A DNA stretch of 44,735 nucleotides from a phage. Under the pieces are notes generated by a model, which saw only the letters and a program-made list of their open reading frames with translations, was not told the DNA's origin and ran no database searches. Location: sequence record PZ166175.1. One strand, 5' to 3'. Positions 5,284 through 44,042 of this stretch are shown piece by piece (position 1 is the stretch's first letter; the number at the start of each line of letters is the position of its first letter). The position numbers were made by a program, and so were the translations under genes.

Positions 5284-5284
5284 T

Positions 5285-5356: not shown

Positions 5357-5441
5357 ACTCAGGAGTGATTTAGCTTTCCGGTAGAACTCAATGGCCGCTT
5401 CCACCTCTTCCTCGCTGTACCGCAAGTGGTATGGTAGTCTA

Positions 5442-6287: not shown

Positions 6288-6308
6288 ATAATAATAATAA
6301 TAATAATA
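6288..6308. repeat. (ATA)7 microsatellite inside a block shared with 24125..24187
   Basis: ataataataataataataata read directly; paralogous block has (ATA)5. Confidence 0.8.
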
Positions 6309-6519
6309 AAGTAAAATGTTGATATATATAGATATTATATTGTATATCGTGTGTATATCTCGCGTAAAAACGTAGGTTAGTGTTCGCTAACTTTTGTGAC
6401 GACACTGAGTATACATGGGTTACGCGTATGCGAAAAATGGCCCGGCAAGAATAAAAATCAACTTGTATGGTAGTCCTTCAATCCTTCATTCACTCACCCA
6501 CCACTTCATTTCACTTTTC

Positions 6520-6605
6520 GCAACAATCAAAAACATCATTGCATCTGAAGCAATATTGCTATATGTGCAATAATCACGTGAATCATTGCAATATCTGCAA
6601 CAATA
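6520..6605. repeat. iteron-like array, five GCAAYAAT copies plus GCAATATTGC and CACGTG palindromes
   Basis: gcaacaatc, gcaatattg, gcaataatc, gcaatatct, gcaacaata within about 85 bp of non-coding DNA. Confidence 0.5.
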
Positions 6606-6616
6606 CATAAATCTTA

Positions 6617-6691
6617 CGAATAGCACTTTTTGCTAAAGACATTAGGGTCTGGTGGGGCTATAGTTAACTCACCAACAGCGAGGGTGTAGAT
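6617..6691 (+). promoter_or_regulatory. early promoter cassette (plus orientation)
   Basis: AATAGCACTTTTTGCTAAAG, 23 nt, TATAGT, then RBS and ATG at 6692. Confidence 0.5.
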
Positions 6692-7305: not shown

Positions 7306-7466
7306 TGCTATTACCATCTGAGATAAATTATTTCGATCTTGAGGTTATAAGCGCCTATAGCGGAAAGGGCTGGCCTTGCGGAGACTGGTTCCGCGAAGAC
7401 CTGCTTGAGAGCCATGAAATTATGATCAAGGCGATAGAGAAGGCACGAAATAGCACTAATTGCTAA
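7302..7466 (+). CDS. hypothetical small protein (54 aa)
   Basis: hand translation MMLLPSEINYFDLEV...; ATGA overlap with upstream gene; 3' end runs into the next cassette palindrome. Confidence 0.35.
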   Translation: MMLLPSEINYFDLEVISAYSGKGWPCGDWFREDLLESHEIMIKAIEKARNSTNC

Positions 7467-7519
7467 AGCCCTTCGGGGATTTTCCTGTATATTCATCTCA
7501 TCGAAACGGAGGATTTGAA
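7445..7519 (+). promoter_or_regulatory. early promoter cassette
   Basis: AAATAGCACTAATTGCTAAAG, 22 nt, TATATT, CATCTCATCGAAAC, GGAGG, ATG. Confidence 0.5.
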
Positions 7520-8352: not shown

Positions 8353-9936
8353 ATGTTTGATTTCAACGAAGATAAACTATCTGTTGAACAGGTTATGGCA
8401 ATTGCTGCCGCAGAAAACCTTCCACCTTTGCGCGTCGCCATTAATGCTAATGGATATCGCCAGTCTCAATCATTCTGGAAGGCTCCGGTCGAGATTGATG
8501 CAGCTAATGACAAGTATCCAGTAATCTCACTCGGCAATGATGTTGATGTTGTTGGTAAATTGTCAGCTAACATTGCTCGGAGCGTGCAATTCCCCGAGTC
8601 TTCAGCTTACATGCACTTCCTGGGGTGTATTTCCGCTGCGATGCTAGGCCGCTTTACCGTTGAGTATCACGGAACTCAGCAACCGACCTCGCTTTATGTT
8701 GTGACGAGCCAGCCTCCATCTACAGGTAAATCAGCAATAAACTCACTTTCTATTGCTCCAATGATTGCTGAGACTGAGAGACTGAATGAAGTGCGAAAGC
8801 GCGAGCGCAAAAAGATTATGGCTAAACTATCTGCGTTATCCAAAGAGATGAAGCAGGAAAAATCCCCGTCAGAGATGGCTTCTCTTTTCGAGGAGAAAGA
8901 GGAGTTGGAGGAAAAACTCGAGAAACTATGCGATATCGTTTTCCCGGTTTCAGATACCACACCGGAAGGTCTTGCGCGAATAAACAACCGTCAGGGCAAC
9001 TTTGCAGTAATCTCGGATGAGGCAACGAGTGTAAACTCACTACTTGGCATGACCTATGGTGACGGATCAAAGAAAACGAACAGTGAGCTTGTGCTTAAAG
9101 CATGGGATGCGGGTAACGTATCTATCGCGCGTGCGAACGCAGAAAGCAACATGAGTTTCGTTGCTATGGGTTGTATCTCTGTAATTGCGCAGGATGAGAC
9201 TATTAACGCCATCATGAATGCTGGTGCGCGTGGTATCGGTGTGTCGGAACGTTTTCTTCTTGTACGTGAAAAATCACTCCTGGGAGAACGTGTATTCGTT
9301 GATGAAAATGGTGAATCAACTTACGAGCCAATTGACGGTGGGCTGAAGTCTGACTACTTCCGATTGGTTCACGAAATAATGAATGAGCAAGATGTAAAGT
9401 TGACGGTAAGTAACTCAGCGATGAAATACCTCAACCTAGCGCGTCAGGAAATGGAACCTCACCTTGCTGACGGCGGGAAGTATTCACACACAATGTTGCG
9501 AGGCGCGTTGGGTAAGTTCGATAAGCAGGCAATCAGGATTGCGGCTGTTCTTCACACTGTGCGTAACTGGTTCAACCCAAATGGCGGTAGCCCGCAGAAG
9601 TCCAGGGAGATTGATCTTGACACAATGCAAGAAGCTGTGATTATGTTCCAGGAGTTGAGCAAAACTTATCTGTCATCTGCTAACGCCGCTGGTCACGCTG
9701 GCGACAATGCCGAGATGAATAAGCTGATTGATATTCTGATTAAGCAAGGCAAGAACGGTAAAGGCGTAGTTGGTATTCGTTCATTATATGAAGCGGCTCG
9801 TAAAGTTAAGCCGTTCGAGGCTCAGGCTGGAGTAATGACGAAGATTAAAGATCACCTACTGCCAATGCTTGACGAGAAAAACTACACGTGCCTGATTGGT
9901 GATAAAGTTTACATTAATCCGCGATTGCTGGGGTAA
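8353..9936 (+). CDS. hypothetical 527-aa protein with P-loop-like and DE-box-like motifs
   Basis: ORF track; motifs PPSTGKS and VISDEAT read from the translation; own cassette promoter; no family confidently recognised. Confidence 0.6.
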   Translation: MFDFNEDKLSVEQVMAIAAAENLPPLRVAINANGYRQSQSFWKAPVEIDAANDKYPVISLGNDVDVVGKLSANIARSVQFPESSAYMHFLGCISAAMLGRFTVEYHGTQQPTSLYVVTSQPPSTGKSAINSLSIAPMIAETERLNEVRKRERKKIMAKLSALSKEMKQEKSPSEMASLFEEKEELEEKLEKLCDIVFPVSDTTPEGLARINNRQGNFAVISDEATSVNSLLGMTYGDGSKKTNSELVLKAWDAGNVSIARANAESNMSFVAMGCISVIAQDETINAIMNAGARGIGVSERFLLVREKSLLGERVFVDENGESTYEPIDGGLKSDYFRLVHEIMNEQDVKLTVSNSAMKYLNLARQEMEPHLADGGKYSHTMLRGALGKFDKQAIRIAAVLHTVRNWFNPNGGSPQKSREIDLDTMQEAVIMFQELSKTYLSSANAAGHAGDNAEMNKLIDILIKQGKNGKGVVGIRSLYEAARKVKPFEAQAGVMTKIKDHLLPMLDEKNYTCLIGDKVYINPRLLG

Positions 9937-10275
9937 GTGATGTTTCTGCTCGATATATTTAAGTTCTGCGAGTCGTATTCATACTTTACTCGTCAGCATT
10001 TGGCGCGATTCATATACCAACACAAGGACTCTGAGAGGTTTAGCAAGGCATCTGGTTTATCACATAGAGAGTTTTGCAGCGCTGCTTCAAAGGAGTTTTG
10101 CGCGAAGATGCTTAGTGCGGGTTACATTGATGGTAGGTGCGGTGAGTTTGTTAGCAAGGGGAGTTTAAAGAGGCCATTTGGCTTCAACTTTGAGGCACTT
10201 AGCGGGTATGAGAGCAAGTACATAAAAGAGATGATGAGCATAGGAAAAATGACTGACGACGAGTTATTTAGCTAA
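9937..10275 (+). CDS. hypothetical protein (112 aa)
   Basis: ORF track; start abuts the stop of the 527-aa gene; followed by a terminator. Confidence 0.45.
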   Translation: MMFLLDIFKFCESYSYFTRQHLARFIYQHKDSERFSKASGLSHREFCSAASKEFCAKMLSAGYIDGRCGEFVSKGSLKRPFGFNFEALSGYESKYIKEMMSIGKMTDDELFS

Positions 10276-14673: not shown

Positions 14674-14689
14674 TTTCTTTCTCTCTTTG

Positions 14690-14757
14690 TGTTTCGTTTC
14701 GATGGAGTAACTATATCGCATCCATGCGAAATCCCTTTAGCAATTCGTGCTATTTTG
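14690..14757 (-). promoter_or_regulatory. early promoter cassette
   Basis: minus sense: AAATAGCACGAATTGCTAAAG, 22 nt, TATAGT, TACTCCATCGAAAC. Confidence 0.5.
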
Positions 14758-15168
14758 AAATCATTTCTTTGAATGCCGCAAGAAAACCTTCGCGCCCGTA
14801 GGCCACAGCAGAGAAACCTCCTGATTCTCTGACGCTTTTAAGGAATGACTTCTGTTCTGAACTGACTGGACTTGCCTGCGCCTTCCCAGCCCTCTTTAGC
14901 TCTATTGCGCCAAATGGATACCTCCCTCGCAAAGATTCTGGTATTAGGAATAAGCAGTCTGACACCCCCTTAAGCAAACCCTTAGCTGCATCCTTCCTTG
15001 CTGACCCAATTGATTTCATACCTTCATTAACTGTGTGCCAGTAAACAATCTGCGGATAATGATACTTAACCCAATCAGAGCAAAATATCTGTTCGTCGTC
15101 TTCCTTTGGGCATGACTTTACAGCGCCCGGGTAAAACTCAATGTAATCCTCTTTATCTGTAATCTTCA
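14750..15168 (-). CDS. VRR-NUC-like PD-(D/E)XK nuclease (putative)
   Basis: ORF track 14750..15202; start moved to MKITDK... after GGAGG; D...ELK motif; adjacent to helicase. Confidence 0.45.
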
Positions 15169-17266: not shown

Positions 17267-17749
17267 ATGAATGCAGTAGACAAGCGAACCATTAACGGCA
17301 ATAACGGAACCATCCGCACCGAAGACAAAAAGAAACGTAAACGACCTTCAGGCTACTACGTTTTAAAAGATGAAGTAAGGGCCGGGCTACGCGCGCGGCT
17401 AGAGATTGTTCTTGATTTCTTCGGCACAAAGGCGAATATCGCAAAGCAGTTAAAGGTAACACCACAGGCCGTAGAAGAATGGTTTAAGCGCGGCATGATT
17501 TCTGCGCGTGGCGCCCAGCTATCGCACAACTACTATAAGCGAAATGGAGAAGGCTTTCGCGCTACATTCTGCCGCCCAGACCTGCAATTCGACGGTAACG
17601 GCAAGCCGCTAACCCTGCGGTGCAAAAAACGTCATATGCTGCGTGTTGTTACTGAGGCCGAATTAGCCACCAAGCCAGAGTGTCGATCATGGCGCAAGAT
17701 TAAGGCCGCTAACGAGGCAGCACGAAAAGCTAAAGAGCAAGGGAAATAG
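17267..17749 (+). CDS. putative DNA-binding protein (HTH)
   Basis: ORF track; segment TKANIAKQLKVTPQAVEEWFKRG resembles an HTH; basic N-terminus. Confidence 0.45.
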   Translation: MNAVDKRTINGNNGTIRTEDKKKRKRPSGYYVLKDEVRAGLRARLEIVLDFFGTKANIAKQLKVTPQAVEEWFKRGMISARGAQLSHNYYKRNGEGFRATFCRPDLQFDGNGKPLTLRCKKRHMLRVVTEAELATKPECRSWRKIKAANEAARKAKEQGK

Positions 17750-17802
17750 CACGAATTGATAAACAGTGGCGCTATACATTGTGTATAGTGCCTTTATTGT
17801 TT
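17745..17802 (+). promoter_or_regulatory. early promoter cassette
   Basis: AAATAGCACGAATTGATAAAC, 22 nt, TATAGT, then RBS GGGGGTAA and ATG at 17803. Confidence 0.5.
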
Positions 17803-18759: not shown

Positions 18760-18825
18760 ATGCCTGAAAGATGATACAATCCAATTTAGCAATTCTTGCT
18801 GTTTTACAAATGGAGACTTTACACA
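18760..18825 (+). promoter_or_regulatory. tail fiber promoter candidate (TGATACAAT) with palindrome TTTAGCAATTCTTGCTGTTTT downstream of the -10
   Basis: extended -10-like TGATACAAT then the cassette-type palindrome between -10 and start codon. Confidence 0.4.
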
Positions 18826-21231
18826 ATGGCAATTTATGACTTAGGAACAGCATCACTAGCTGCAAATGGCGAGGTGACTGGAGTCGGTACGACATGGAAA
18901 GCACCACTCACTCTAATTCGAGTTGGTGCAACTATTGTATTTAAAACTGAGCCAGTTAAGATTTATACTATCTCTGAAATTATCAGCGACACTCAGATTA
19001 ATGTTTATAACCCTAATTCTGAAACTGTTCCTGCTGGGACTGGTTACGCGATTCTTGCTCACGATGGAATTACAGTTCAGGGGTTGGCTCAGGATGTTGC
19101 AGAAACCCTTCGTTACTATCAGTCGCGTGAAACAGAAGTTGCAGATGCTGTTGATGCATTTAACAATTTTGACTCTGCTGATTTTAAATCAAAGGTAACG
19201 CAGGTAAACACGCAGTACGGTGATGTTGTTACGATTGCAGAACAGGTAAACACGAAGTACGGTGATATTGTTACGATTGCAGAACAGGTTTCAAGTGATG
19301 CATCATCATCACAAATTAACGCCACCAATGCATCATCTTCCGCCGATAGAGCACAAGCAGCGGCAAACTCCGTGTCTGGATCATTAACTTTAAACTTCTC
19401 AGATGGAGGAACGGTAGAGTCTAAAAATCAGCAGGTTTTATACATCAATGGAAGTGATGTTAAGTCTTATGTCTGGACTGGGTCATTCCCGAAGACGATT
19501 CCAGCTGGCTCAACCCCAGATAGCGCAGGTGGTGTTGGTGCTTACTCATGGGTCAAGATTTATGACTCAAACCTGTTTGATTACGATGGTTTAAGTTCAA
19601 TCGGTAAGGTTAAATCAGTTTCAGAGTTATCTTGTTTGTCAGGTGAGATTGGTATTACTACGATTGAGCTAGAGTCTTATGTGGCTGGATTCAACCTAGG
19701 CGGTGGTACTCTTATCGCGTCAGATGCATCACTTCAGGTTAATAATGTAACTGTTTTTTCAGGGGACGGCGTCACATGGAGCCGTAAACTTAACGGTAGA
19801 AGAGCAACAGTATATGATGCTGGTTACACTGGTGATGGTGATATAGCTGCGGCAATAAACTCAGTAAACATGGCTGGCCTTGACTGCGTTGTTCCTGTAG
19901 ATGGCCTTGTGCAATCACAGATAAACATCGACGTATCAAGAGGTTCATTGATAGGCGAGAACAAGTGCAATATTAAAGAGTCCCCTGGTGCTGTTGGTGA
20001 ATATTTCGTAAACATATTCAACTCAAATACTGATTATGTTGATAGAGACTCGATATCATCAACATCATTGATATCTGGGATTTCATTTACTGGCCTTGGA
20101 GCACGCAAGTTCTGTGTAGGTGGATCAACATCAGGTGAGACTGGCGAATTAAGAATCGAGAACTGCGGAATCATATCAACTGGTGGAATTGAGTTCTTAG
20201 ACAACTCATATAGGATTCTTTTTGATAAGTGCGCAATAAGCAGGAGTTTTAATGAGACAATAACTTTTAGGTCGAGAGCTAACTCTGGTGAAGTTATGAA
20301 GTTTAATCACTGCTGGATTGTAGATAACGGAGGCCCAATCACCTTTGAGAATGGTCAGTTTATTTTTGATTCATGCTCGTTACCGGCAGGTAAAAAGAGT
20401 GGCTATTTTGACCCCACAGTAAGTCTGCACGATAACGCGACGGTAGTTTTCTCAAATGGAAATATAGAGTATCAGCCAGGTCAGAACTTCGTATCATTCC
20501 TGGTCACGGGAAGTTCGAGATTAAGCATAAAAGACACCACCATTCTTGTTCCGGATGGTTTTACGTCTGTTCCAATCGTAAGTAATGATGATGGCGTTGT
20601 AATCTTGAATAATTGTTCGCTTCCTCTATACGGAAGTACCACAATTGCTTCTGGTTTCCAAGCAAGGCAAGTTGTCGGCGGGTCTAGTAAAAAGGTTATC
20701 GCGAGAGGGTGCTTTCCGAGGGCTGGATTCCCTGTTAGTGATTGGAGCAAGGGATCAATTGTTAGCCCTTACATTAACAGCTTAAGCAATGGCAGCGGAC
20801 AGTTTCAGAATACTTCCAACTGGTCACTGTCGCAAACTTCTTCTGGATCGGTTACTGCCTCTATTGTCTCGCAGGTGCCCACAGGTATAACTGCTCAGTT
20901 TGATAGGTCATTCCTTTTGAATGTACCTGACTTAAACTCATCAGCGAACTTTACCACTAATGCTTATGATTGCGAGCCGGGTAGATACTTCCAGTTCGGA
21001 TTTTGGGCCATGAACACAACAAAAACATTAGCAAGTATTAGATTTTTAGATATTTCTGGTAATGCTGTTGAGGAATCTGTAGGTTACTACATACCGAAAG
21101 GTGGTATCTTCTCTTTTTACGCTCTTATATCAACGGTTCCCCAGGGTGCATATAGAGCCGAGATAAACTTTAACGTAGGACCATCCACTGGCTACCTTAT
21201 GTTACACAATGTTATTTATGGATTGATTTAA
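18826..21231 (+). CDS. tail fiber protein (putative)
   Basis: ORF track 18796..21231, start moved to MAIYDLGTASLA...; long Ser/Thr/Gly/Asn-rich protein; internal tandem duplication. Confidence 0.6.
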   Translation: MAIYDLGTASLAANGEVTGVGTTWKAPLTLIRVGATIVFKTEPVKIYTISEIISDTQINVYNPNSETVPAGTGYAILAHDGITVQGLAQDVAETLRYYQSRETEVADAVDAFNNFDSADFKSKVTQVNTQYGDVVTIAEQVNTKYGDIVTIAEQVSSDASSSQINATNASSSADRAQAAANSVSGSLTLNFSDGGTVESKNQQVLYINGSDVKSYVWTGSFPKTIPAGSTPDSAGGVGAYSWVKIYDSNLFDYDGLSSIGKVKSVSELSCLSGEIGITTIELESYVAGFNLGGGTLIASDASLQVNNVTVFSGDGVTWSRKLNGRRATVYDAGYTGDGDIAAAINSVNMAGLDCVVPVDGLVQSQINIDVSRGSLIGENKCNIKESPGAVGEYFVNIFNSNTDYVDRDSISSTSLISGISFTGLGARKFCVGGSTSGETGELRIENCGIISTGGIEFLDNSYRILFDKCAISRSFNETITFRSRANSGEVMKFNHCWIVDNGGPITFENGQFIFDSCSLPAGKKSGYFDPTVSLHDNATVVFSNGNIEYQPGQNFVSFLVTGSSRLSIKDTTILVPDGFTSVPIVSNDDGVVILNNCSLPLYGSTTIASGFQARQVVGGSSKKVIARGCFPRAGFPVSDWSKGSIVSPYINSLSNGSGQFQNTSNWSLSQTSSGSVTASIVSQVPTGITAQFDRSFLLNVPDLNSSANFTTNAYDCEPGRYFQFGFWAMNTTKTLASIRFLDISGNAVEESVGYYIPKGGIFSFYALISTVPQGAYRAEINFNVGPSTGYLMLHNVIYGLI
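19201..19284 (+). repeat. 42-bp tandem duplication (x2) inside the tail fiber gene
   Basis: caggtaaacacgcagtacggtgatgttgttacgattgcagaa repeated with 2 mismatches; encodes QVNTQYGDVVTIAE / QVNTKYGDIVTIAE. Confidence 0.85.
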
Positions 21232-22584: not shown

Positions 22585-22665
22585 TGCTAACCTCGCTCGT
22601 TGTTGATTGGGTAATCATACCACAACTTTTAATTTCGTCTTTAGCAATTCGTGCTATTTATATTT
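22585..22665 (-). promoter_or_regulatory. early promoter cassette
   Basis: minus sense: AAATAGCACGAATTGCTAAAG, 22 nt, TATGAT, TACCCAATC. Confidence 0.5.
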
Positions 22666-23623
22666 CTTTATATTGTTTTAATGCCCACTCAGGAACAAAT
22701 AGCTCTTGCTCTGTAATGCCATTAGAGTACCCTGGCCAGATATCTAGCTCCTTACACTTCTTGTAAGTAGCCAGCGCCTCAAGATACTGAAGACGGCCGA
22801 TTCTTAGCTGTTCGTCAGTTAGGGTGTACAGCATTGGTAAGTATGGCTCCACCTTCTCCTGTGCCAGCAACCCTACAGCAACCTTGCGCTTCTCGTTGAA
22901 TGCTTTCACAAACAGATCTCTCTGAAGAGCCATTTTTGCAAGGTATCCGTGCGAGAATGCCGATTTACCGAATCCTTCCGGGCTTGCGTCTGCGGTCGTT
23001 TTGTAATCTGTCAGCTTGACTATGCCATCAACAACGTCAACGTGGTCAATTCGAATCTTCACGCCGACACCAAGAATCTCACCGAATATTGATAGCTCTT
23101 TTTGTGCTGTCTCACTATTCACGATTGCATTATATGCAGGTATATTGCAAAGAACCTCACGCATAGCCACAACTTTATCGTAGTCAGCGGCACTAACTAG
23201 CTCCTTACCCTCCACAAGCGCTTGAGCGCTCTCCTGCTGCTCAATTAGCCATTTAACAGGCCAATCCTCACCAGAACGGTACATCATCTCCACGAGCTCG
23301 CTATAGCCCTTCCCGGACGTGCCGGCTACGCCAACTTTTTTAAGTGCTGACGATAATCCGGCCTGGCTTGTAATTAATCCTTCAATCGTGTCAAGGTCTG
23401 TTGCTCGCAAATATTCCCTATCAAATACGTCTTGCTCAAGAATCATGCAGTGGCTAAGGGTTCCAAACTTAAGCGCCTTGCTATCATTGTTTCGCTGCTT
23501 AAACTTCCACTTAGCTGGGGATCCCTGGATAATCTCGACAAGTGAGGAGCCAGAGATGTGATCAGTTTCAGCGTGATAAGCCTCGTTACTTAGCTCCTCT
23601 CGCGTAAAAACTTTAAAGCTCAT
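22658..23623 (-). CDS. PD-(D/E)XK recombination exonuclease (putative)
   Basis: 321-aa ORF; motif IDHVDVVDGIVKLTDYKT; paired with ERF and SSB. Confidence 0.5.
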   Translation of the reverse strand: MSFKVFTREELSNEAYHAETDHISGSSLVEIIQGSPAKWKFKQRNNDSKALKFGTLSHCMILEQDVFDREYLRATDLDTIEGLITSQAGLSSALKKVGVAGTSGKGYSELVEMMYRSGEDWPVKWLIEQQESAQALVEGKELVSAADYDKVVAMREVLCNIPAYNAIVNSETAQKELSIFGEILGVGVKIRIDHVDVVDGIVKLTDYKTTADASPEGFGKSAFSHGYLAKMALQRDLFVKAFNEKRKVAVGLLAQEKVEPYLPMLYTLTDEQLRIGRLQYLEALATYKKCKELDIWPGYSNGITEQELFVPEWALKQYKEI

Positions 23624-23626
23624 ATC

Positions 23627-23822
23627 CTATTCCTTAACCTTAACTACTTTAACAGATTTCATATCTTCCTCAGTAAAGTACCCGGTCAGCACATCGAGGG
23701 CTTCCTCTTTAGTATCGAATCTATCAGCTTCATTCTTATCTGTTGTGTAACCGGCCGGGCCACCAAAATAGCAATCGCCGAACAGTGCGTTGTTTTTCTC
23801 TTTGATAATGTAGTAGGTCATT
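23627..23822 (-). CDS. hypothetical protein
   Basis: ORF track 23627..23956; start moved to MTYYIIKEK... downstream of TATATAGTTAACCCATCGAAAT. Confidence 0.4.
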
Positions 23823-23824
23823 TC

Positions 23825-23900
23825 CGTGTCTCTCTGGTTGTTTGATTTCGATGGGTTAACTATATATTCGGCGAAGTAGCCAGTCCAATTGGTTTTGCCA
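23825..23900 (-). promoter_or_regulatory. degenerate early promoter cassette
   Basis: minus sense: TTGGCAAAACCAATTGG, spacer, TATATAGTTAACCCATCGAAA; upstream palindrome differs from consensus. Confidence 0.35.
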
Positions 23901-24143
23901 ATCGTTGACTTAAGTTTACGTGTTAATACCTTGTAATTCCGCGTAGGCATTGCCACTAGTTACGTTTCTTGGCATCTCAGCCCAGCTATAGCTCAATGTA
24001 ACCATCGTGTATATCGTGTATACCGTTTCTTGCAGAGGTGCATTGGTATAGCTGTCACGCAATACTGTATAAATCAACATGATATTGAAATTATAACCGG
24101 AACACTCTATAGAAGTAGTTACATGATATACACAGTAATATAT

Positions 24144-24158
24144 ATAATAATAATAATA
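24144..24158. repeat. (ATA)5 microsatellite inside the block paralogous to 6267..6337
   Basis: ataataataataata read directly. Confidence 0.8.
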
Positions 24159-24283
24159 AGAGTAAAAGGTTGATATATATAGATATTTTAATGTAACCAA
24201 TGCGTAACTAGGCGTAACAGGGCGTATATCATTTTTCGCGGATTAGATTGCATACATCGAGTTACATCGGTTACGTGTATGCA

Positions 24284-24367
24284 ATAGCACGAATAGCTAA
24301 AGACATTCCGCAGAGACAGCTGTATTATTACCACGTCGAAACTAAGCAACTTAACAAGGAATGCAAG
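24284..24367 (+). promoter_or_regulatory. early promoter cassette
   Basis: AATAGCACGAATAGCTAAAG, 23 nt, TATTAT, TACCACGTCGAAAC, AAGGAA, ATG. Confidence 0.45.
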
Positions 24368-24598
24368 ATGACTAACTTAATTAAATCAGCAATCATTGCC
24401 GCGGCAACAATCATGATGGTAGGTTGTTCTTCTGGCCCTCGCCCTGATGGTTGGTGCGCAACGTCCTCAAACGGCGTGTGCGTAGCTAAATGGAAAGGTG
24501 GCGTAGTTGTTCCGGCTGGTGAAATTGACATTCGCTACGATGGAATTAAAGGCTCCGGTGGCTCCGTTCGTGATTATGGCTCTAAGGAGTGGAATTAA
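24368..24598 (+). CDS. outer-membrane lipoprotein, Cor-like superinfection exclusion candidate
   Basis: ORF track 24248..24598 with start moved to ATG after RBS; signal peptide with lipobox MVGC; 76 aa. Confidence 0.5.
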
Positions 24599-25563: not shown

Positions 25564-28500
25564 AGAAAGTACCTACCACAACTCTTCCTCCTCCAGGCAA
25601 GTTAACCGTTATTCCGTTTCCGTTAATCTGTACCGTATTGTTTATTCCGTTGAAAGCGAATTCACCACTGTTGGCGTACAGTTTACCGCGAATCTCAGCG
25701 TTACCAGACTTATCAATCCTCCAGCCTGTGCTTCCTGCTACGTAGTTGCTGGACTGAATAAAGTTACCAATCTTCGCGTTGCTGATTGAGCCATCACCGA
25801 TTACTGCGCTCTGGATGATTACGTTTCCGTTCTCGACAACGAAGGGGAGTTGCCATTGACCGGAGCCAGAACCAATACCATTACTGATTGCGAATCTGTT
25901 TGCGTCAAAGATGAACTGACTGCGAACATTACCACCAGTGCCAACTAGCTCCATGCTCATGCCGGACGAATAAGTCTGTCCATTGTATTTCAGGCCAAGA
26001 CTAATTCCGTACTGTACGCCAGTTGACGTGGCATTAGAGAAAGCATCCAGTTTCTGGTTTAGTGCCGCCTCGTTATCACCCAATCTTGCTGATAGAGCCG
26101 TGTCTGCAGTAGCCCTTGCTTCTGTCTCGGTGGCTAGCGCCGTCTGAACTTCTGTAATCGATGCTACAACTTCATCATCTATCTGTGCTTTAAGGGCTGT
26201 GAGAGCCTCTACGCGCGCCTGAGTTTCATCGGCTATGAGATTAACAGCCTGAACATATTCAGCCTTACGCTTGCCGTTCTCCTTAGTCATGCGACGAACA
26301 TCAGTGTCATTAGCTAATGCGTTCTCAAGAATTGATTCTGCCTGGTTCTGGATGTCCTGATTCTTTTGAATCGCATTCTGTTCGAGGTATTTGAATCCTT
26401 CTGAGCCTTCAATATCAACCTTGATGTAGTCATTGATAATGTTTTCGTCGTCAGTACTCATGCCTCTTGCGAAACTAGACCAATCAGACGTATTACCTAT
26501 TCTGTCAATCAATCTTGCGCGATACCAGATAACCTTACCTGGCTGAATAGGAGTATGCCAGTATTCATAGGCTGGATAAGGCAGCAACGTCAGCAAGCTT
26601 GCGTTATCAGGATTGTAAGTACCATCGCCATTATCAGGAACCTGCTGAAGCTCAGTGTAAGCAGTATCACCAGAGCCATCAGGGAATCCCCATTTAACAC
26701 GGATGCCAAATACCTCATCTGTTGATGCCGTGATAACAGTAGGCGCTGATGGGCGACCAATCTTGCCAGTTAGTGATACCGTTACAATGTCAGACCAGGC
26801 AGACACGTTTTCAGTATCTGATACGCTGCGAACCCTAACGTCATATATTCCTGCGTAAATACCTTCGATATCAACTTCTGTACTAGCTGTTCTTGGTACG
26901 TTAATCCAGTTACCATTTTCCTTCCTCCACTGAACATTGTAGGTTTTGGCGTATGGTGCCTTATCCCATCCGATAACCATCGTCTCAACCGATAAGCCCT
27001 GAACAACCTTACTGTAGCTTGATACAGTCAAGTTTTCTGGTGGCGATAATCTGTCAGGCTCAACAATTGAAGTTGGTCGGTCGACAATATTTACGCCGTA
27101 GTCAATCTCGTCATACTTGTTAGGGTCATACTCTACTGCGGTAATTGTATACTGGAATGAGTCCGAGCCGTCAGAATCTGCTTTTTGAATCCCGGTCACA
27201 ACGTATTGCTGAAGCGCGAGGTTATCCTTGTCGATTGCGAACACAGTATCAGGTTGAGCTACAAAGCTAAAAGCAGTATTCAGGTTGATGGTTCTACCGT
27301 CTTCCGAAATGCTGGCAATAGTTCTCGCTTCAGGGCTTCCGTCTGGTTTGTTCAGAAGAATTCTGTCACCTGGCGCTGCGTCAACTTTAAACGGGGTAAA
27401 AACCTGCAATCCCTGAACTGATTCAATACGACCGGAAAGGTTTAACTGATAGTTGCTGGACCATGCCGCGTCATTGACCGCAATGACCTCTCCAATCATC
27501 GGAATCATGCCCTCCAACCCAGTGGTGAAGCTGATAGTTTCGCTTCTCAGATTGGTTTTTAGGAGCCATCTGCCGCGTCTGTTTGCTTCACTTCTTCTCG
27601 TACATCCGATTGCCGTGAGATCTACTGGGTTGAATCCGAATCGACGAGTGGCTTCCAGTTCAAATACTGGTTCAACATCCTGCTGATAGTTGTTCTCCAC
27701 ATCATCAAACTGAACGTTTGCCGTAGTGTAAAGGCTCTTATCGCTGGCAAATGTGCGGCTGAATAATCCATTAACGACGTTATCATTCGTGAAGATGTAA
27801 GATGGATTACGAGGTTTGTCGACAACAATACCAATCTTTTCGCCATCGTAGAAAGTTAAGCCACGGAAGATTGAGCAGATATCACGAATTAGTGTGTAGG
27901 CCTCAACTTTATTCTGAACAACCATATCGCACAGGTAGCGCGGCTCCATGCCGCCTTTTCCATCTGGAACCATTTGGTCGCAGAATTGCGCAGCCTCGTA
28001 AAGACCCCACTTATCAATCTCTACACCTAGTTCTCGCTGGTCAAGACCGTAGCGGCGGTTTGTCACTAAGTCATACAGAACCCACGCTGGGTTGTTTGAC
28101 CATGCCATTTTGAATAGGCCATTCCATGTCCCGCTGTAAGTTCTGGTTTCAGGGTCGTAGTTAGTTGGGACCTGAATCAGCTTCCATCTCTTCTTGATTG
28201 AGATTGTCGGGATACCGTTAGGGAATAAGTCAGAGCCAAACTCAACGTAAACCAGAGCCGTAAGCGGATAGCGGAATTTAGCATCTATTACTTCCTGATA
28301 GGTTGTAATTTGCATTCCGTTAACCAGGGTGCTACTTGTTGAATCTGGTGTAATCTTGCGGATGCGAACCAGTGCGCTATCAAATTCAGCCGGAAGGTTC
28401 ACGCGAATGCTTCTGTCGTAACCTGTAGTGGTTTTCCCGTTAGCAACTCCGCGAGTGTATTCCTGGTAAGCCCCGCCATTAACAGACAGGTCAATCGCAT

Positions 28501-28972
28501 ACTCGCAAGTAGTTCCGTTCAGATCGCCATTACTTTCTTGCTTAACCAGCCTGGGCCAATATAGCTTTACACGAATCGCTGATAGCTGAGTATTGTTAAC
28601 CGCAATGATGTAAGGGGTATCGTTCGTGATTTCTCTGGAAGCCTGAATCTCTGAGTTAGCACCATCAAGACCAGCGATATAGTCCTGATACTGCGTGCCA
28701 GCACGGAACTCAGCGCGAACACCCTCGTAGTTGTAGCTACCATCCTGGTTTTGCACTGGAACATCAGCAAGGTATAAATCCTTCATTGAGAAGTTTGAAT
28801 CCACCTCTCCGTCAGCAACAGCAAGCAACACCTTAACCTTGTTAAGTGAAATAAGGTTATCTTCCTGTTCAACTGGTTGATGCTGCTTCTGGCTACCGCC
28901 TTTAGCACCATAAATCTTAATCTCTTCAGCCATATCACAAAGCCTCATGTTTGTTTTGATCATTTGTGCCAT
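25562..28972 (-). CDS. central tail fiber / host specificity protein (lambda gpJ-like)
   Basis: 1136-aa ORF at the distal end of the tail module after gpI/K/L/M-like genes. Confidence 0.7.
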   Translation of the reverse strand: MAQMIKTNMRLCDMAEEIKIYGAKGGSQKQHQPVEQEDNLISLNKVKVLLAVADGEVDSNFSMKDLYLADVPVQNQDGSYNYEGVRAEFRAGTQYQDYIAGLDGANSEIQASREITNDTPYIIAVNNTQLSAIRVKLYWPRLVKQESNGDLNGTTCEYAIDLSVNGGAYQEYTRGVANGKTTTGYDRSIRVNLPAEFDSALVRIRKITPDSTSSTLVNGMQITTYQEVIDAKFRYPLTALVYVEFGSDLFPNGIPTISIKKRWKLIQVPTNYDPETRTYSGTWNGLFKMAWSNNPAWVLYDLVTNRRYGLDQRELGVEIDKWGLYEAAQFCDQMVPDGKGGMEPRYLCDMVVQNKVEAYTLIRDICSIFRGLTFYDGEKIGIVVDKPRNPSYIFTNDNVVNGLFSRTFASDKSLYTTANVQFDDVENNYQQDVEPVFELEATRRFGFNPVDLTAIGCTRRSEANRRGRWLLKTNLRSETISFTTGLEGMIPMIGEVIAVNDAAWSSNYQLNLSGRIESVQGLQVFTPFKVDAAPGDRILLNKPDGSPEARTIASISEDGRTINLNTAFSFVAQPDTVFAIDKDNLALQQYVVTGIQKADSDGSDSFQYTITAVEYDPNKYDEIDYGVNIVDRPTSIVEPDRLSPPENLTVSSYSKVVQGLSVETMVIGWDKAPYAKTYNVQWRKENGNWINVPRTASTEVDIEGIYAGIYDVRVRSVSDTENVSAWSDIVTVSLTGKIGRPSAPTVITASTDEVFGIRVKWGFPDGSGDTAYTELQQVPDNGDGTYNPDNASLLTLLPYPAYEYWHTPIQPGKVIWYRARLIDRIGNTSDWSSFARGMSTDDENIINDYIKVDIEGSEGFKYLEQNAIQKNQDIQNQAESILENALANDTDVRRMTKENGKRKAEYVQAVNLIADETQARVEALTALKAQIDDEVVASITEVQTALATETEARATADTALSARLGDNEAALNQKLDAFSNATSTGVQYGISLGLKYNGQTYSSGMSMELVGTGGNVRSQFIFDANRFAISNGIGSGSGQWQLPFVVENGNVIIQSAVIGDGSISNAKIGNFIQSSNYVAGSTGWRIDKSGNAEIRGKLYANSGEFAFNGINNTVQINGNGITVNLPGGGRVVVGTF

Positions 28973-30383: not shown

Positions 30384-30743
30384 TTATTCAAAATAAACCT
30401 CGAAATCTATAAATACTGAAACACCCTTTGATTTAAGCTCCTCAACCTCTATCAAACTATCATCAAAGAATTTCTTAGTAACATCAATCCCATTCATTCG
30501 ATACTTCATCTTGCCATCGTGAGCATCCTTGCGAGGAGTCACTCCCTCTACTCGTGAGAAGTCGTAACAATCATCACAAGTCATGCTGTTAAATTTTACA
30601 ATATTGCCATTCTCATCTTGAGTCTGATAGTGCCTGTTTGAGTCAACAACATTGCAGGTGTAAATGCAGCCAGCAAAAAACAAACCAGCGCACTTTTCTT
30701 TTTCTTTTTTGTATCCGTTAAATTTAATGTAGAACATTTTCAT
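30384..30743 (-). CDS. hypothetical Cys-rich protein, inserted gene inside the tail operon
   Basis: ORF track; own early-type promoter cassette upstream; multiple Cys pairs. Confidence 0.5.
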   Translation of the reverse strand: MKMFYIKFNGYKKEKEKCAGLFFAGCIYTCNVVDSNRHYQTQDENGNIVKFNSMTCDDCYDFSRVEGVTPRKDAHDGKMKYRMNGIDVTKKFFDDSLIEVEELKSKGVSVFIDFEVYFE

Positions 30744-30744
30744 C

Positions 30745-30815
30745 TCCTCTTGTTTCGATATGGTAACTATAACCCATCTTTCAAAATCGCCTTTAGCAAT
30801 TTGTGCTATTTAGCT
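30745..30815 (-). promoter_or_regulatory. early promoter cassette inside the late tail operon
   Basis: minus sense: AAATAGCACAAATTGCTAAAG, 22 nt, TATAGT, TACCATATCGAAAC, AGAGGAG, ATG. Confidence 0.5.
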
Positions 30816-31565
30816 CTGGTTTGCTTTAGCCTGAAGGCTTGCTGCTGCGCATCCACCAAATGAAATCTGATTATTCTCACCAAATCTAAGCTTGCAGCTA
30901 TTTACCGTTCCGGCGCAGAAGTCTAATGAAGGGTCTGATACTGGGTTATCATCCTTGTCAAAGTAACGATTACCAGCGTAGTCGCAACCATTCCCGCTAC
31001 GATACCAGCCACGTGAAGCCCAATAGCAAACAGACTGAACAAGTCTCGCCGGGATATAAATGCCATCCATATCCATCGGGCTACTAAGCTCAAATGATGC
31101 CGTCTTGTAATCAACCTGCCTAGGTCGCTCAATGAAGTAAACAAATCGGCGATAGTCCCCATCAGCAATACTTCCGTCTTCATTAATATTATCGCGCGTA
31201 GTAATCCAGATTGTAACCTTAGCCTTAACCAATCCATTGTAAGTACGTATAAGTGCGCTAATGCGCTGGTCTACGTTTGATACTGTTAGCGTTACTTTGT
31301 TGGCCTTCCCGTCAGAAGTCATATTGATGCCCGATATACCGAAAGGTCTAGGACCATACTCTTCACCGCGAAATGTAATAGTCTTCTCTGGTAGTGGCTC
31401 CCCATTCATTTGAGCCATCATAATCTCTTCTGGCGTGTATGAAATGTTCTCATTGTGGAAGTTGTAAACGAGACTTCCGAAGGAGGTTCCGTCAACCTGG
31501 ATTAGTGTCACAATCTCGCCAGGGAAAAGGCTTTGCAACTGATTTTCAAACTTTGAACTTAACAT
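30810..31565 (-). CDS. minor tail protein (lambda gpL-like)
   Basis: ORF track 30810..31577, start moved to MLSSKF... after TTGGAGAAA; C-terminal Cys cluster. Confidence 0.6.
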   Translation of the reverse strand: MLSSKFENQLQSLFPGEIVTLIQVDGTSFGSLVYNFHNENISYTPEEIMMAQMNGEPLPEKTITFRGEEYGPRPFGISGINMTSDGKANKVTLTVSNVDQRISALIRTYNGLVKAKVTIWITTRDNINEDGSIADGDYRRFVYFIERPRQVDYKTASFELSSPMDMDGIYIPARLVQSVCYWASRGWYRSGNGCDYAGNRYFDKDDNPVSDPSLDFCAGTVNSCKLRFGENNQISFGGCAAASLQAKANQS

Positions 31566-31577
31566 ATATTTCTCCAA

Positions 31578-31599
31578 TAAAAAAGCCCCTAATGGGGCT
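31578..31599 (-). terminator. terminator-like hairpin between gpM-like and gpL-like genes
   Basis: AGCCCC-atta-GGGGCT followed by TTTTTTATT in minus sense. Confidence 0.5.
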
Positions 31600-31603
31600 T
31601 AGT

Positions 31604-31954
31604 TTAACGCATTGAGCTAAAAACTTCTACGAATTGCATGCTCACAGTCTGAACTTCCTTGCTGAGCGGAGTGACGCTAATGCTATCCTGCTGAATCACG
31701 AACATGGATGTATCACCCTGCGGAGTTGTCCAGAAGAATGGAGTAATGATGTGGTTGAAGCAAAAAACCATCACATCTCTCCAGTCCTTGTTAGTGTATG
31801 TCATCTGGTAGCTTCTAGTGTTACTACGATATCCACCCGTACCCCTTTGGGTGTAACCATTGCCGAAGCTAACAATTCGCACGTTGTTCGTATTACTGAA
31901 TGAAGCTGAGCCACCCTGTATTTGAGTACACCAGTTGAAAGTATCAATAGCCAT
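31604..31954 (-). CDS. minor tail protein (lambda gpM-like)
   Basis: 116-aa ORF directly downstream of tape measure gene. Confidence 0.55.
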   Translation of the reverse strand: MAIDTFNWCTQIQGGSASFSNTNNVRIVSFGNGYTQRGTGGYRSNTRSYQMTYTNKDWRDVMVFCFNHIITPFFWTTPQGDTSMFVIQQDSISVTPLSKEVQTVSMQFVEVFSSMR

Positions 31955-34963: not shown

Positions 34964-34976
34964 CTAAGCCTCCATA

Positions 34977-35008
34977 ATAGAAAACCCGCCGAAGCGGGTT
35001 ATTTTTTT
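34977..35008. terminator. bidirectional terminator-like hairpin upstream of tape measure gene
   Basis: AACCCGC-cgaa-GCGGGTT with T-runs on both sides. Confidence 0.5.
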
Positions 35009-35924: not shown

Positions 35925-36000
35925 TAATTCCTTCATTTCGTTTCGATGAGTTAACTATACAGGAAGATTGCATTAACGCTTTAGCAAAAAGTGCCATGCA
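35925..36000 (-). promoter_or_regulatory. early promoter cassette inside the late operon
   Basis: minus sense: CACTTTTTGCTAAAG, 22 nt, TATAGT, TAACTCATCGAAAC. Confidence 0.45.
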
Positions 36001-36001
36001 A

Positions 36002-36024
36002 TAAAAAACCCTCCGAAGAGGGTT
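36002..36024 (-). terminator. rho-independent terminator downstream of major tail protein gene
   Basis: AACCCTC-cgaa-GAGGGTT followed by TTTTTTAT in minus sense. Confidence 0.6.
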
Positions 36025-36030
36025 TGTGCT

Positions 36031-36687
36031 TTAAACTTCAGCTGCCACAGAGGACAGACGACCACGAATGGATACAGCTATGGATACCGTTTCGATTTCG
36101 TTAACACCAATGGTAGGGGTGTCGTTGAAAGCGATAGTGCCGGACTGCAGACGCATTTCCTGAGCGCGAGGTACAAACAGACGAATAGCAACAACCTGGC
36201 CAGACTCATCGTAGTTACGCAGGACAGGATAAACCGGGTTAGTGTACTCATGAGCGAAGGTGAAGGTGTTCGTTACCGCAGATTTATAAGTAGGAATCTG
36301 CTGCTCACGGTCATCAGAAAGACACTGGAAGTTAACGAACTGCTGTTCGCCGCCATCAGTGGAAACGTCCTGAACGCACGGAACTTCGAACCATGAAGTA
36401 ATCTTAACAACCTCACCAGTTAAGCCAGCAGGGAACTTAGTGGTGTTGGAGGTATCAATACCTTCAACTGTTACCGAAGTGCCAGAAACTTCAGTTACTC
36501 TCACCTGCTTGTCGCTAAGTAGGGTTGAGCTGGAGGCGGTAAACAGAAGGTAGTCACCCTTAGCCAGGCCGGATCCGTCAGATACAGTTAAAACAGGGGT
36601 AGCTGCGTTAGAGATTGCAGTTACGTTAATTGCAGTTCCGCGAGATCCTTCTACGAAGACCTGCGTGCCATTTGATAAATGAGCCAT
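36031..36687 (-). CDS. major tail protein (putative)
   Basis: 218-aa ORF upstream of the chaperone pair with a strong terminator after it. Confidence 0.5.
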   Translation of the reverse strand: MAHLSNGTQVFVEGSRGTAINVTAISNAATPVLTVSDGSGLAKGDYLLFTASSSTLLSDKQVRVTEVSGTSVTVEGIDTSNTTKFPAGLTGEVVKITSWFEVPCVQDVSTDGGEQQFVNFQCLSDDREQQIPTYKSAVTNTFTFAHEYTNPVYPVLRNYDESGQVVAIRLFVPRAQEMRLQSGTIAFNDTPTIGVNEIETVSIAVSIRGRLSSVAAEV

Positions 36688-37907: not shown

Positions 37908-38308
37908 CCACCGCCACCAGCGGAAGTAATCAATCCAAAGCCGCCACCTTTCTTGCGGATAAGCGCCTTGTACATGCGACCCCAGGAGGAGGATGATAAA
38001 TCACCCTGGATTGCTGATTGGTTATCATAGGTTATAGAGAATTCACCGCTCAGTGCATAACTTGACATTCTACGGCTGTATGTTTCCAGGCCTTCATTCT
38101 CACCCTTAAATGCGCCATCAGCAAGCATCAGGTGTAGCGCATAAAGACCGACAGCCTTGTCTTTGTCTGCACCAAACTTGCTTTCGCATACATATAGACG
38201 TGCCAAATCAATCCATACATTAATTGCTTCGTCATCCACCGCTTTAAGCGCAGGAACAAGAGAGCGCATAAACGCCAAAATTGCATCATTCATATTAGCT
38301 CCATACAA
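37892..38308 (-). CDS. head-tail connector / head completion protein (putative)
   Basis: 138-aa ORF; Gly-rich Cys-containing C-terminus; position only. Confidence 0.4.
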   Translation of the reverse strand: MYGANMNDAILAFMRSLVPALKAVDDEAINVWIDLARLYVCESKFGADKDKAVGLYALHLMLADGAFKGENEGLETYSRRMSSYALSGEFSITYDNQSAIQGDLSSSSWGRMYKALIRKKGGGFGLITSAGGGGCGCR

Positions 38309-38334
38309 TAAAGGACGCCGAAGCGCCCTGTTTG

Positions 38335-38580
38335 TTATTTGTACTCGTTACCAGTCTCAGCTTCGGAGATGGTTTTCGGTTCTTTGCGCTTTTTCTTGCT
38401 AACAATCTCTTGCGCGATTTGCTTGGTTGCTTTAGCGTCACCTTCAATAGTGAGTTTACCCTCTGCGATTAAACGCTTGAGTCCGTCGCAAATTACATCA
38501 ACCTCGAGAGTGTCACCAGGTAAATATTTCTCACCCTTGTAAACGATAAGGCAAGCGCCAGTATGCTCTAAACGAATCAT
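38335..38580 (-). CDS. hypothetical protein (81 aa)
   Basis: ORF track; between capsid gene terminator and connector genes. Confidence 0.4.
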   Translation of the reverse strand: MIRLEHTGACLIVYKGEKYLPGDTLEVDVICDGLKRLIAEGKLTIEGDAKATKQIAQEIVSKKKRKEPKTISEAETGNEYK

Positions 38581-38644
38581 TTTTGTCTCCTTTGTTTATC
38601 TGATTGAGTGATTATAACCCAACAATTCCATTTGGTACAGACGT

Positions 38645-38668
38645 AAAAAAAAGCCCTCCGAAGAGGGC
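38645..38668 (-). terminator. rho-independent terminator downstream of major capsid protein gene
   Basis: GCCCTC-cgaa-GAGGGC followed by T8 in minus sense. Confidence 0.65.
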
Positions 38669-38674
38669 GATTTA

Positions 38675-39616
38675 TTACTCGAAGGTAATACCCTTCATTA
38701 CAGCCATCGTCAGTGGACGATAAACAATCAAACCTGTAGCTTTTGATGTTACAGGGTACTTAAAGTGCAAGTCCTTGGGTTGCCCAGGAAGTACGTTAGT
38801 AGCTTCTGGAATCTCAATAGACATATTGAGTGGATTCTTTTCAAACGCCAGAGCAGCCTTGCCACCTGCGCCATCGTAGTTGTCCAGGAATTGAAGATAA
38901 CGCAGATTGATACCCGAGTTGTTGGTAGCGAACAGCTGCGCGTAACTGATAGAGGTGTTGGGAACCAGCTCTTGCATCATGCGGCGAGCGGAAGCAGGCA
39001 GCAAGATATCAGTTGCGGTGTGAGTGCCATTGGTCGAAGTCTCGATTGCATCAATAAGTGCGGTGATATCATTCATGGCAGCAGCTGCGGAGTTCCACGT
39101 ACCAGCAACAACGTTGTTGATGTTCGGATGGTCAAATACGCTCACGATACCGTGCGGAGAGGAACCAGACCAAACCAGTTTATCAAGCAGGTTGTCGTGA
39201 GCTTCGAAAGCCAATGCCTGTTTGCGAGTCGACAGAGACTGACCAGTTGCGGCGCCAGCTTTAATTTCATCAGTAGAAATCAGGAATGCGTTACCGAAAC
39301 GGAAAACTTTACCCTGTTTCTCAGTCATGAAGGCATCAACCAGCGGCAAGTCGTCAGAGTAATCAGCGATAATCTGAGCAATGCCAGCACCATCAAATTC
39401 TGGGTATTCGAAATACTTCGCGTGACCAGGAATTTCATTTGTTACAGGGAAGATATTAACAACTGAGTTTTCTGCGTATTCTTTTTCGTAAGCGCGATTC
39501 AGAGCAGCGGTAAGCTGGCTAACAGTCCAGACACCAGCGGCATCTGCTTTATCTACGCCCATTTGCTCGAGGTGAGCGGTGATTTTTGCTTGCTCTGCAT
39601 CAAATTTAATGGCCAT
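38675..39616 (-). CDS. major capsid protein (putative)
   Basis: 313-aa ORF in the head module, followed by a strong terminator; assignment by size and position. Confidence 0.6.
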   Translation of the reverse strand: MAIKFDAEQAKITAHLEQMGVDKADAAGVWTVSQLTAALNRAYEKEYAENSVVNIFPVTNEIPGHAKYFEYPEFDGAGIAQIIADYSDDLPLVDAFMTEKQGKVFRFGNAFLISTDEIKAGAATGQSLSTRKQALAFEAHDNLLDKLVWSGSSPHGIVSVFDHPNINNVVAGTWNSAAAAMNDITALIDAIETSTNGTHTATDILLPASARRMMQELVPNTSISYAQLFATNNSGINLRYLQFLDNYDGAGGKAALAFEKNPLNMSIEIPEATNVLPGQPKDLHFKYPVTSKATGLIVYRPLTMAVMKGITFE

Positions 39617-43986: not shown

Positions 43987-43997
43987 GTTTTTCTCCA

Positions 43998-44021: not shown

Positions 44022-44042
44022 AGTTTATCACACGGCTTTTAA

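Follow-up and report, generated by a model that had tools for sequence, protein, structure and literature searches.

Replication origins in which short repeated sequences (iterons) accompany an AT-rich unwinding element are known, and so are origins that come in pairs. In the satellite phage P4, replication depends on two separated cis-acting sites, ori and crr, which carry the same short repeats and are bound by P4's own primase-helicase, the alpha protein, a fusion of a superfamily 3 (SF3) helicase with a primase; crr is not a copy of the AT-rich origin. The origins of staphylococcal pathogenicity islands (SaPIs) combine 6-12 penta- or hexanucleotide iterons with an AT-rich centre, at least two iterons lying on each side in opposite directions, and the SaPI Rep protein is a self-loading helicase whose C-terminal winged helix reads these iterons (PMC9371898). 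The Cch helicases of the staphylococcal cassette chromosome SCCmec, which are related to the SaPI Rep helicases and resemble minichromosome maintenance (MCM) proteins, also count among the closest known systems. The Bacillus phage SPP1 possesses two similar origins in which direct repeats accompany an AT-rich unwinding element (PMC6316719). Here, we describe two related units, A (6135-6435) and B (23988-24285), in the DNA of a T1-like phage (sequence record PZ166175.1, 44,735 nucleotides, the whole of which was analysed and is referred to as the window). They are two copies of a ~300-bp cis-acting element kept at two syntenic positions in T1-like phages (Drexlerviridae), and we put the probability that they are paired replication-origin-like elements, be it two origins or one origin with an auxiliary site, at roughly 45%.

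The window derives from an Rtp-like coliphage of the Rtp/T1 type (Drexlerviridae, Braunvirinae) and has the same gene order as Rtp and T1. Region B with its flanks is 85-90% identical to Rtp-like coliphages, for example Rtp, JeanPiccard, BEK1-1 and the Veterinaerplatzvirus isolates. Unit B lies within 546 bp of non-coding DNA (23822-24367), bordered on the left by two minus-strand genes, a small rtp46-like gene (23627-23821; 64 amino acids, MTYYIIKEKNN..., start ATG at 23821) and recE (22658-23623), and on the right by a plus-strand gene for a Cor-type phage lipoprotein (24368-24598; Pfam PF24052, E=3e-36), after which a DUF6453 gene follows. These flanks are as an earlier sequence-only reading had described them, with leftward recombination genes on one side and a rightward lipoprotein operon on the other, divergent in the window. 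Unit A occupies the other large divergent intergenic region (region A, 5991-6691), which parts two arms of small early-type genes and corresponds to the point at which the records of Rtp, T1 and TLS have been opened. The half of the genome devoted to DNA metabolism is enclosed between the two sites. For the comparisons below, locus searches in IMG/VR with RecE and with a DUF7174 protein returned 7 and 6 close relatives, respectively, and full GenBank genomes were used.

The sequence-only reading had proposed that B is a paralog of A, and the similarity between the two is indeed far above chance. A Smith-Waterman local alignment of the two intergenic regions joins 6268-6431 of A to 24127-24282 of B with a score of 102, compared with 23.7±3.4 (maximum 42) in 500 dinucleotide-preserving shuffles (z=23) and with 28 when one of the regions is reverse-complemented. 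MAFFT likewise aligned A and B co-linearly, adding further common blocks on both sides. All sequence blocks quoted for B are found there, each with a counterpart in A: GTATACCGTTTCTTG (24018-24032) corresponds to GTATACCGTTT (6147-6157), (ATA)5 (24144-24158) to a longer run starting at 6288, AGTAAAAGGTTGATATATATAGATATT (24161-24187) to a stretch at 6310-6336 that is identical at 26 of 27 positions, and GGTTACGTGTATGCA (24269-24283) to GGTTACGCGTATGC (6418-6431). Their order is the same at both sites and not partly different, as had been thought. Concerted evolution of A and B within a genome was considered and rejected, as B is nearly constant across genera and A differs between lineages; the A unit of Rtp is closer to B of the window than to A of the window.

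Unit B is 85-95% identical in 11 relatives, and in Rogue1 the identity is 82% over 58% of its length. When 12 relatives were compared segment by segment, the core segment of B (24085-24285) retained 89-97% identity (82% in Rogue1), as against 77-90% for recE and 75-93% for the lipoprotein gene, and in TH21 (Nouzillyvirus) the B core is still 91% identical where recE can no longer be aligned at the DNA level. Being non-coding yet better conserved than its neighbour genes, the unit is evidently under strong constraint. The 201 bp from 24100 to 24300 match 135 phage records, mostly at 90-99% identity, and a search of E. coli genomes and plasmids, where the unit might reside, for example, on satellites, gave no match. 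On the right, the unit ends at about 24283, and several relatives carry inserted genes past this boundary.

The paired character of the two sites is kept across the family. Nearest-neighbour duplex stability was computed over the full length of eight genomes (the window, Rtp, the Veterinaerplatzvirus genome L018, Msk, TH21, T1, TLS and Rogue1), which span five lineages (Braunvirinae, Nouzillyvirus, Tunavirinae, Tempevirinae and Rogunavirinae). Sites A and B are, in each of these genomes, the two segments of lowest duplex stability, whether 60 or 100 bp are considered, with z between 4.2 and 5.9, compared with z≤3.8 for the sites ranked next. In the window, the least stable 60-bp duplex of the genome belongs to unit A (z=5.7) and the second least stable to the B core, which also ranks second at 100 bp (z=5.2 and 4.8, respectively); the next unrelated site has a z of ~3.2. 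Moreover, seven genomes, namely the window, Rtp, four further Braunvirinae and T1, contain exactly two copies of the 11-mer ATATATAGATA, one per site, in the same orientation. Two Braunvirinae beyond the eight stability genomes (L019 and L020) have both copies of the core 11-mer, and the TH21 stretch examined holds the exact 11-mer at site B only. In Rogue1, sites A and B align with a local score of 76, in T1 they have the core 13-mer ATATATATAGATA and the same repeat words in common, and in TLS co-linear blocks extend, as judged by eye, over ~400 bp. In the window, Rtp, T1 and Rogue1, each of the two sites separates divergent units. TLS, however, has no cor gene, and its site B sits between tail fibre gene J and recE, both rightward, which means that the unit is not defined by divergent transcription, the trait by which it had been characterized in the sequence-only reading.

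At the centre of unit B is an AT-rich core (24133-24192, ~86% A+T), a candidate DNA-unwinding element that comprises (ATA)5 and the 11-mer (24175-24185). Its equivalent in A extends over ~6277-6345 (91% A+T), with the 11-mer at 6324-6334, so that the cores measure 60-70 bp and reach 86-91% A+T in genomic DNA of 56% A+T. Short repeats flank the core of B on both sides. The left arm (24118-24131) carries GTTAC at 24118 and ATATAC at 24126 on the minus strand, in the orientation opposite to that of the right arm (24193-24228), where GTAAC, GCGTAAC, GCGTAAC and GCGTATA follow each other at 24193, 24202, 24212 and 24222 as direct, iteron-like repeats on the plus strand. The GTA triplets of the right arm, at 24193, 24204, 24214 and 24224, are spaced by 11, 10 and 10 bp. 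Relative to the start of the 11-mer, their positions are +18, +29, +39 and +49 in B and at +18, +29, +40 and +48 in A (6342, 6353, 6364 and 6372). In the alignment of 12 genomes, 25 of the 26 repeat positions of the right arm are invariant, but only 2 of its 10 spacer positions (Fisher p=1.3e-5), a selection footprint on the repeats themselves; the left arm is invariant except for one substitution in TH21.

Further out, a tandem repeat at the left end (CGTGTATAT followed by CGTGTATAC; 24006-24023, plus strand) contains CGTGTATATCGTGTAT, which is invariant in the 12 genomes, and CGTGTA/TACACG is present in 3 copies within 24001-24300 and in 10 in the whole window. A variable stretch (~24040-24085) is not conserved. 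The distal right block (24236-24285) includes CGCGGA at 24237, a palindrome half (in most relatives, the palindrome TCCGCGGA), and an inverted repeat formed by ATTGCATACA (24247-24256) and TGTATGCAAT (24276-24285), which encloses GTTAC at 24261 and 24270. We also considered the (ATA)n run as a hypervariable phase switch and discarded this idea, because its length does not differ among 10 of 12 B sites, nor among the four A sites of the window's lineage.

The repeat words themselves are nearly exclusive to the two sites and vary with the genus. All six genomic copies of CCGCGGA in Rtp are found in regions A and B, as are all six copies of TGTAACA in T1, five of eight copies of GTGTATA in the window and four of eight copies of GTGAACA in TLS. 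The plan is the same in TLS, where AGAACA precedes the core and TGTTCT follows it, and T1 adheres to it as well. Such variation suggests a phage-encoded specificity factor that would co-evolve with its sites. We take the TLS repeat TGTTCAC to resemble the P4 octamer TGTTCACC, a likeness that may be a coincidence.

The anatomy of the unit fits an iteron-type replication origin at least as well as it fits a control region: an AT-rich, thermodynamically unstable element is present in each of the eight genomes, the short repeats are phased, with at least two on each side in opposite orientation as in SaPIs, and they are under selection. The likeness to SaPI origins extends from the penta- to heptanucleotide repeats and the AT-rich centre to the element-encoded AAA+ helicase with a C-terminal winged-helix domain, which in our case is predicted. 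In contrast, the SaPI origin is single and lies immediately downstream of rep, whereas here two copies are found ~2 kb and ~14 kb from the helicase gene, and the unit additionally has distal repeat blocks and palindromes. SPP1, a virulent pac-type siphovirus of ~44 kb, offers the parallel of two similarly organised origins far apart, oriL and oriR, one of which lies in a long intergenic stretch amid the late genes (PMC6316719). In SPP1, however, a dedicated origin-binding protein, gp38, which acts together with a loader and a helicase of the DnaB type, binds the repeats, and oriL is situated within gene 38; the sequences show no similarity, and T1-like phages have no recognisable set of gp38, gp39 and gp40.

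If units A and B serve as origins, a sequence-specific phage initiator would bind the repeats on both sides of the core, the AT-rich core would melt, and helicase rings would then be loaded, followed by bidirectional replication by the host polymerase with priming by the phage primase. We infer this binding, the melting of the core in vivo and the start of replication at A or B from the features described above. The origin reading is supported by the position of the promoter-like sites of the flanking genes, which lie outside the unit, and by the non-divergent setting of site B in TLS. GC skew was tried as an origin signal and set aside as uninformative, since it tracks the direction of transcription. 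In the papers on TLS (2024) and SU57 (2020), an origin was sought and none was reported. Our literature search found no account of the paired elements or of a T1-like origin, although an earlier mention in the original T1 and Rtp genome papers is possible.

The best candidate for an initiator that might read the repeats is, by analogy with the SaPI Rep protein, the product of a DUF3987 gene (8353-9936, plus strand; homolog of T1 gp09 and Rtp67, PHROG annotation 'DNA helicase'), located ~2 kb to the right of site A. A comparison of its sequence with the PDB gave no significant hit. A confident AlphaFold2 model built from 27 homologs (predicted local distance difference test score (pLDDT) 89, predicted template-modelling score (pTM) 0.87) was therefore compared by Foldseek, the best hits of which were all MCM2-7 subunits, with E down to 3e-6 and template-modelling (TM) scores of 0.31-0.38. 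The protein is predicted to adopt an MCM-like AAA+ helicase fold with a C-terminal winged-helix-like domain (residues ~450-527), through which it could recognize the repeats. Between the window and T1, the winged-helix end (49% identity) and the N-terminus (42%) are its most divergent parts, compared with 63% in the ATPase core. Small helix-turn-helix proteins, which the phage also encodes (17267-17749 and 9937-10275), are alternative candidates. We offer only tentatively, and as less probable than the origin function as such, the proposal that T1-like phages initiate replication with a self-loading MCM-family helicase that assembles on inverted pentanucleotide repeats around an AT-rich core, the two paralogous origins lying on either side of the DNA-metabolism half.

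Several points weigh against an origin function. The case is built entirely on sequence and predicted structure, and the link between the helicase and the repeats is one of analogy alone. In the window, the repeats of A are of the GTATAT type and those of B of the GCGTAAC type, which is awkward for a single reader protein. Replication of T1-like phages might be driven largely by recombination, with no need for a fixed origin. Finally, AT-rich islands flanked by binding sites would also fit strong early promoters with their operators. Weak promoter-like sites do occur in the core, among them a minus-strand TTTACT-N16-18-TATATT/TATTAT that A and B have in common in most Rtp-like phages, and the GenBank annotators of CEB_EC3a predicted divergent promoters there.

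This last point bears on the strongest rival explanation, in which the two sites form a hub of early transcription control. The AT-rich cores would carry divergent early promoters for the unmodified host RNA polymerase and the repeats would be operators, at which a phage repressor or activator, such as a Cro/C2-like protein (17267-17749), switches four early units together, much as lambda has paralogous operator sets in OL and OR. We regard it as somewhat unlikely, but, because an AT-rich island with flanking binding sites describes both kinds of element, it stays a live rival to the origin reading. It draws on the divergent setting of both sites in the window, Rtp, T1 and Rogue1, and on the early look of all four flanking units, with small genes beside A and recombination genes and a superinfection-exclusion lipoprotein gene beside B. 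Promoter-like hexamers are present on both strands of the core, with 6 and 7 sites compared with ~3 in shuffles, and TTTACT-18-TATATT or TTTACT-16-TATTAT stands on the minus strand at the same aligned place in A and B. Predicted promoters are annotated in the cores of both CEB_EC3a and ETEP102, the phage encodes helix-turn-helix proteins, and the palindromes TCCGCGGA and ATTGCATACA...TGTATGCAAT have typical operator shapes.

Other observations count against the hub. DNA as AT-rich as the cores yields -10-like hexamers by composition alone, as any (TA)n or (ATA)n run does, and the annotations in CEB_EC3a and ETEP102 are software predictions. A position-weight scan of ±150 bp around nine cores from five phages found no promoter near the top score of the genome (maximum 9.7, as against 13.4) and no good sigma-70 promoter at a core offset conserved across genera, T1 and TLS included. 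The 'control region' label given to B in the sequence-only reading has no direct support, even though its divergent flanks in the window are real. According to prediction, the best promoter-like sites for the flanking genes are found beyond the limits of the unit, at a distance of 130-250 bp from the core: TGGACT-17-TATAGT (23887-23859, minus strand; its -10 region belongs to repeat family D5) for the rtp46-like/recE operon, and AAGACA-17-TATTAT (24300-24328, plus strand) on the side of the lipoprotein gene. In TLS, site B comes downstream of a late gene and the terminator-like hairpin of that gene, and is itself followed by a separate recE promoter that is consensus-like. Furthermore, the main repeats are short, non-palindromic and direct, with helical-turn spacing, and thus look more like iterons than like operators. 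Lambda OL and OR share with A and B the presence of two related regions per genome near early units, with repeated protein-binding sites; lambda operators, however, are 17-bp palindromes that overlap strong, well-defined promoters, whereas here short direct repeats surround a promoter-poor AT-rich island and the flanking promoters are separate.

The cassette in which the region was said to end does exist. Positions 24281-24301 (GCAATAGCACGAATAGCTAAA) belong to repeat families D7 and D10 and lead into AAGACA-17-TATTAT, and the whole cassette (24281-24328, plus strand) is, judging by the promoter scan, the probable promoter of the lipoprotein operon. A 21-nt intergenic repeat with the consensus aaATAGCACnnnTTGnTAAAA has been described for TLS, T1 and Rtp, and its function is an open question (PMC11447400). 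As criteria for membership we took a match to aaATAGCACnnnTTGnTAAAA, an intergenic position and an orientation towards the downstream gene, some 70-90 nt ahead of its start codon; GCAATAGCACGAATAGCTAAA fits the consensus and lies, intergenic and in this orientation, 87 nt upstream of the ATG at 24368. The right end of B is thus a copy of the repeat with the same orientation as in TLS, T1 and Rtp. Nevertheless, the repeat is a separate, many-copy element that covers only the rightmost 20 bp of B, and it is not part of the A/B paralogy, because the cassette of A sits 190 bp past the end of unit A.

Some 15-20 copies of a composite form of this cassette are present in the window. In these, the 21-nt repeat, which contains the near-palindrome TAGCA-N5-TGCTA, is followed after some 20-30 bp by a TATAGT-type -10 hexamer, often preceded by TGn, and then by a conserved CCCATCGAAA; the 3' end of the repeat provides only a weak -35 (AAGACA). 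Composite cassettes are found at 3904-3980, 4472-4527, 5284-5360, 6617-6664, 7447-7467, 14686-14762, 17743-17763, 22605-22660, 24281-24328, 30742-30818, 35945-36000 and 44464-44519, among others, and look like a family of activator-dependent or extended -10 promoters.

Considerably less probable than the transcription hub is an architectural or host-factor role, in which the AT-rich islands would recruit host nucleoid proteins (integration host factor (IHF), Fis, H-NS) or proteins of the phage, so that the DNA is bent or looped, and could thereby aid packaging (A lies beside the presumed pac region), recombination or the bridging of A and B. The core consensus of IHF is WATCAANNNNTTR, and, as read off the sequences, the minus strand matches it with TATCAACCTTTTA in B and TATCAACATTTTA in A. 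The match is confined to most Rtp-like copies, degraded at site A of Rtp and absent from the T1 and TLS cores, so that we rejected an IHF site as a universal feature of the unit; genus-specific repeat words, in turn, favour a phage-encoded specificity factor over a host protein. As to packaging, T1-type records conventionally start near pac, and a TTGCA/TGCAA motif cluster (6538-6592) lies within a few hundred bp of site A and is similar to the first 60 bases of the T1 record, but site B has no known link to packaging. The placement of A and B on either side of the DNA-metabolism half would suit an architectural role as well.

The surroundings of this cluster deserve a separate remark. To the right of unit A, ATTGCA, TGCAAT and GCAAC motifs are concentrated at 6530-6610, in a stretch that is similar to the start of the T1 record (GTTGCATGGTGTGCAACTGTTG...GAATGCAATGATTG) as well as to the equivalent region in Rogue1 and that may be the terminase recognition (pac) region. 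Except for one ATTGCA/TGCAAT inverted pair (24247, 24280), the motif cluster is not common to B.

The weakest alternative, that the conserved stretch encodes a product, either a small protein in the form of the N-terminal Rtp46 extension annotated in Rtp or a small RNA, is very improbable: although Rtp46 is annotated there with 132 amino acids reaching into the left part of the unit, the 143-amino-acid family phrog_35664 matches this long form and very high conservation might in principle mean a gene, the conservation tracks repeats rather than codons, the 67-amino-acid family phrog_5247 fits the short form, a core of 86-91% A+T with a microsatellite is unlikely to fold into a structured RNA, and the covariance models of Rfam 15, run on both strands of 23800-24400, gave no match even at E≤1. 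We examined the left part, annotated as long rtp46, for coding potential and rejected it. Upstream of the rtp46-like methionine, the stop-free frame begins at a point that varies from genome to genome; in the window this frame is shifted, and in one relative (L005) it is closed immediately ahead of the methionine. As the rtp46-like gene has 64 codons' worth of protein and the frame upstream of it is not conserved, 23822-24367 is without a conserved reading frame. Concerning the annotation itself, phrog_5247 matches residues 46-109 of the longer rtp46-like open reading frame, and the GenBank rtp46 of 132 amino acids (28260-28658 of the Rtp record), like phrog_35664, extends into the conserved non-coding unit (23822-24080 of the window). 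The 132-amino-acid annotation probably over-extends the gene, the conserved protein having 64-67 amino acids.

The analysis also yielded several observations on the surroundings of the units and on the window at large. Just to the right of unit B lies an insertion hot spot (24283-24368 of the window, compared with 3100-4040 of L001 and with L005 and L019). The genes inserted there, between B and the lipoprotein gene, are DNA-binding or anti-repressor-like in CEB_EC3a, a Dcm-like methyltransferase gene in JeanPiccard and a homing endonuclease gene in BEK6; Rogue1 carries a pRha-like gene on the other side of unit B. An open reading frame of 811 amino acids (18796-21231), presumably that of an rtp50-like side tail fibre, contains a 42-bp tandem duplication (19201-19284) whose copies, in perfect register, are 95% identical and correspond to 14 codons. 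GC-rich hairpins of the form AAAAACCC(G/T)CCGAAG(C/A)GGGTTT occur between late genes; those at 34970-35007, 35994-36031, 38299-38336, 38639-38676, 31563-31611 and 43984-44032 make up repeated sequence families and look like rho-independent terminators. Two records, MG065688.1 ('Campylobacter phage A110b') and PP134917.1 ('Pseudomonas phage PsgS01F'), are 92-94% identical to the window across the non-coding units. Given such identity to an E. coli Rtp-like phage, their stated hosts are doubtful, and contamination with a coliphage is a possible explanation for the labels.

T1 belongs to the seven classic T phages; its relatives occur commonly as contaminants and are candidates for phage therapy. 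For this family, our analysis provides a concrete pair of candidate sites in five Drexlerviridae lineages, a repeat code that varies with the genus and a candidate MCM-like initiator. If A and B are indeed origins, the origins of the T1 family would be located, an explanation would be at hand for two non-coding stretches that rank among the longest and best conserved in these compact genomes, and parts for phage engineering, such as origin-bearing plasmids that are amplified upon infection, would become available. If, instead, the sites prove to be hubs of early promoters, they would still be the master regulatory sites of the family. Should the MCM-type reading hold, the T1 family would become a simple bacterial model for the sequence-defined loading of an MCM-type helicase, and one would then ask whether A and B communicate through looping or handcuffing, like P4 ori and crr, so as to time the switch from early replication to concatemer formation.

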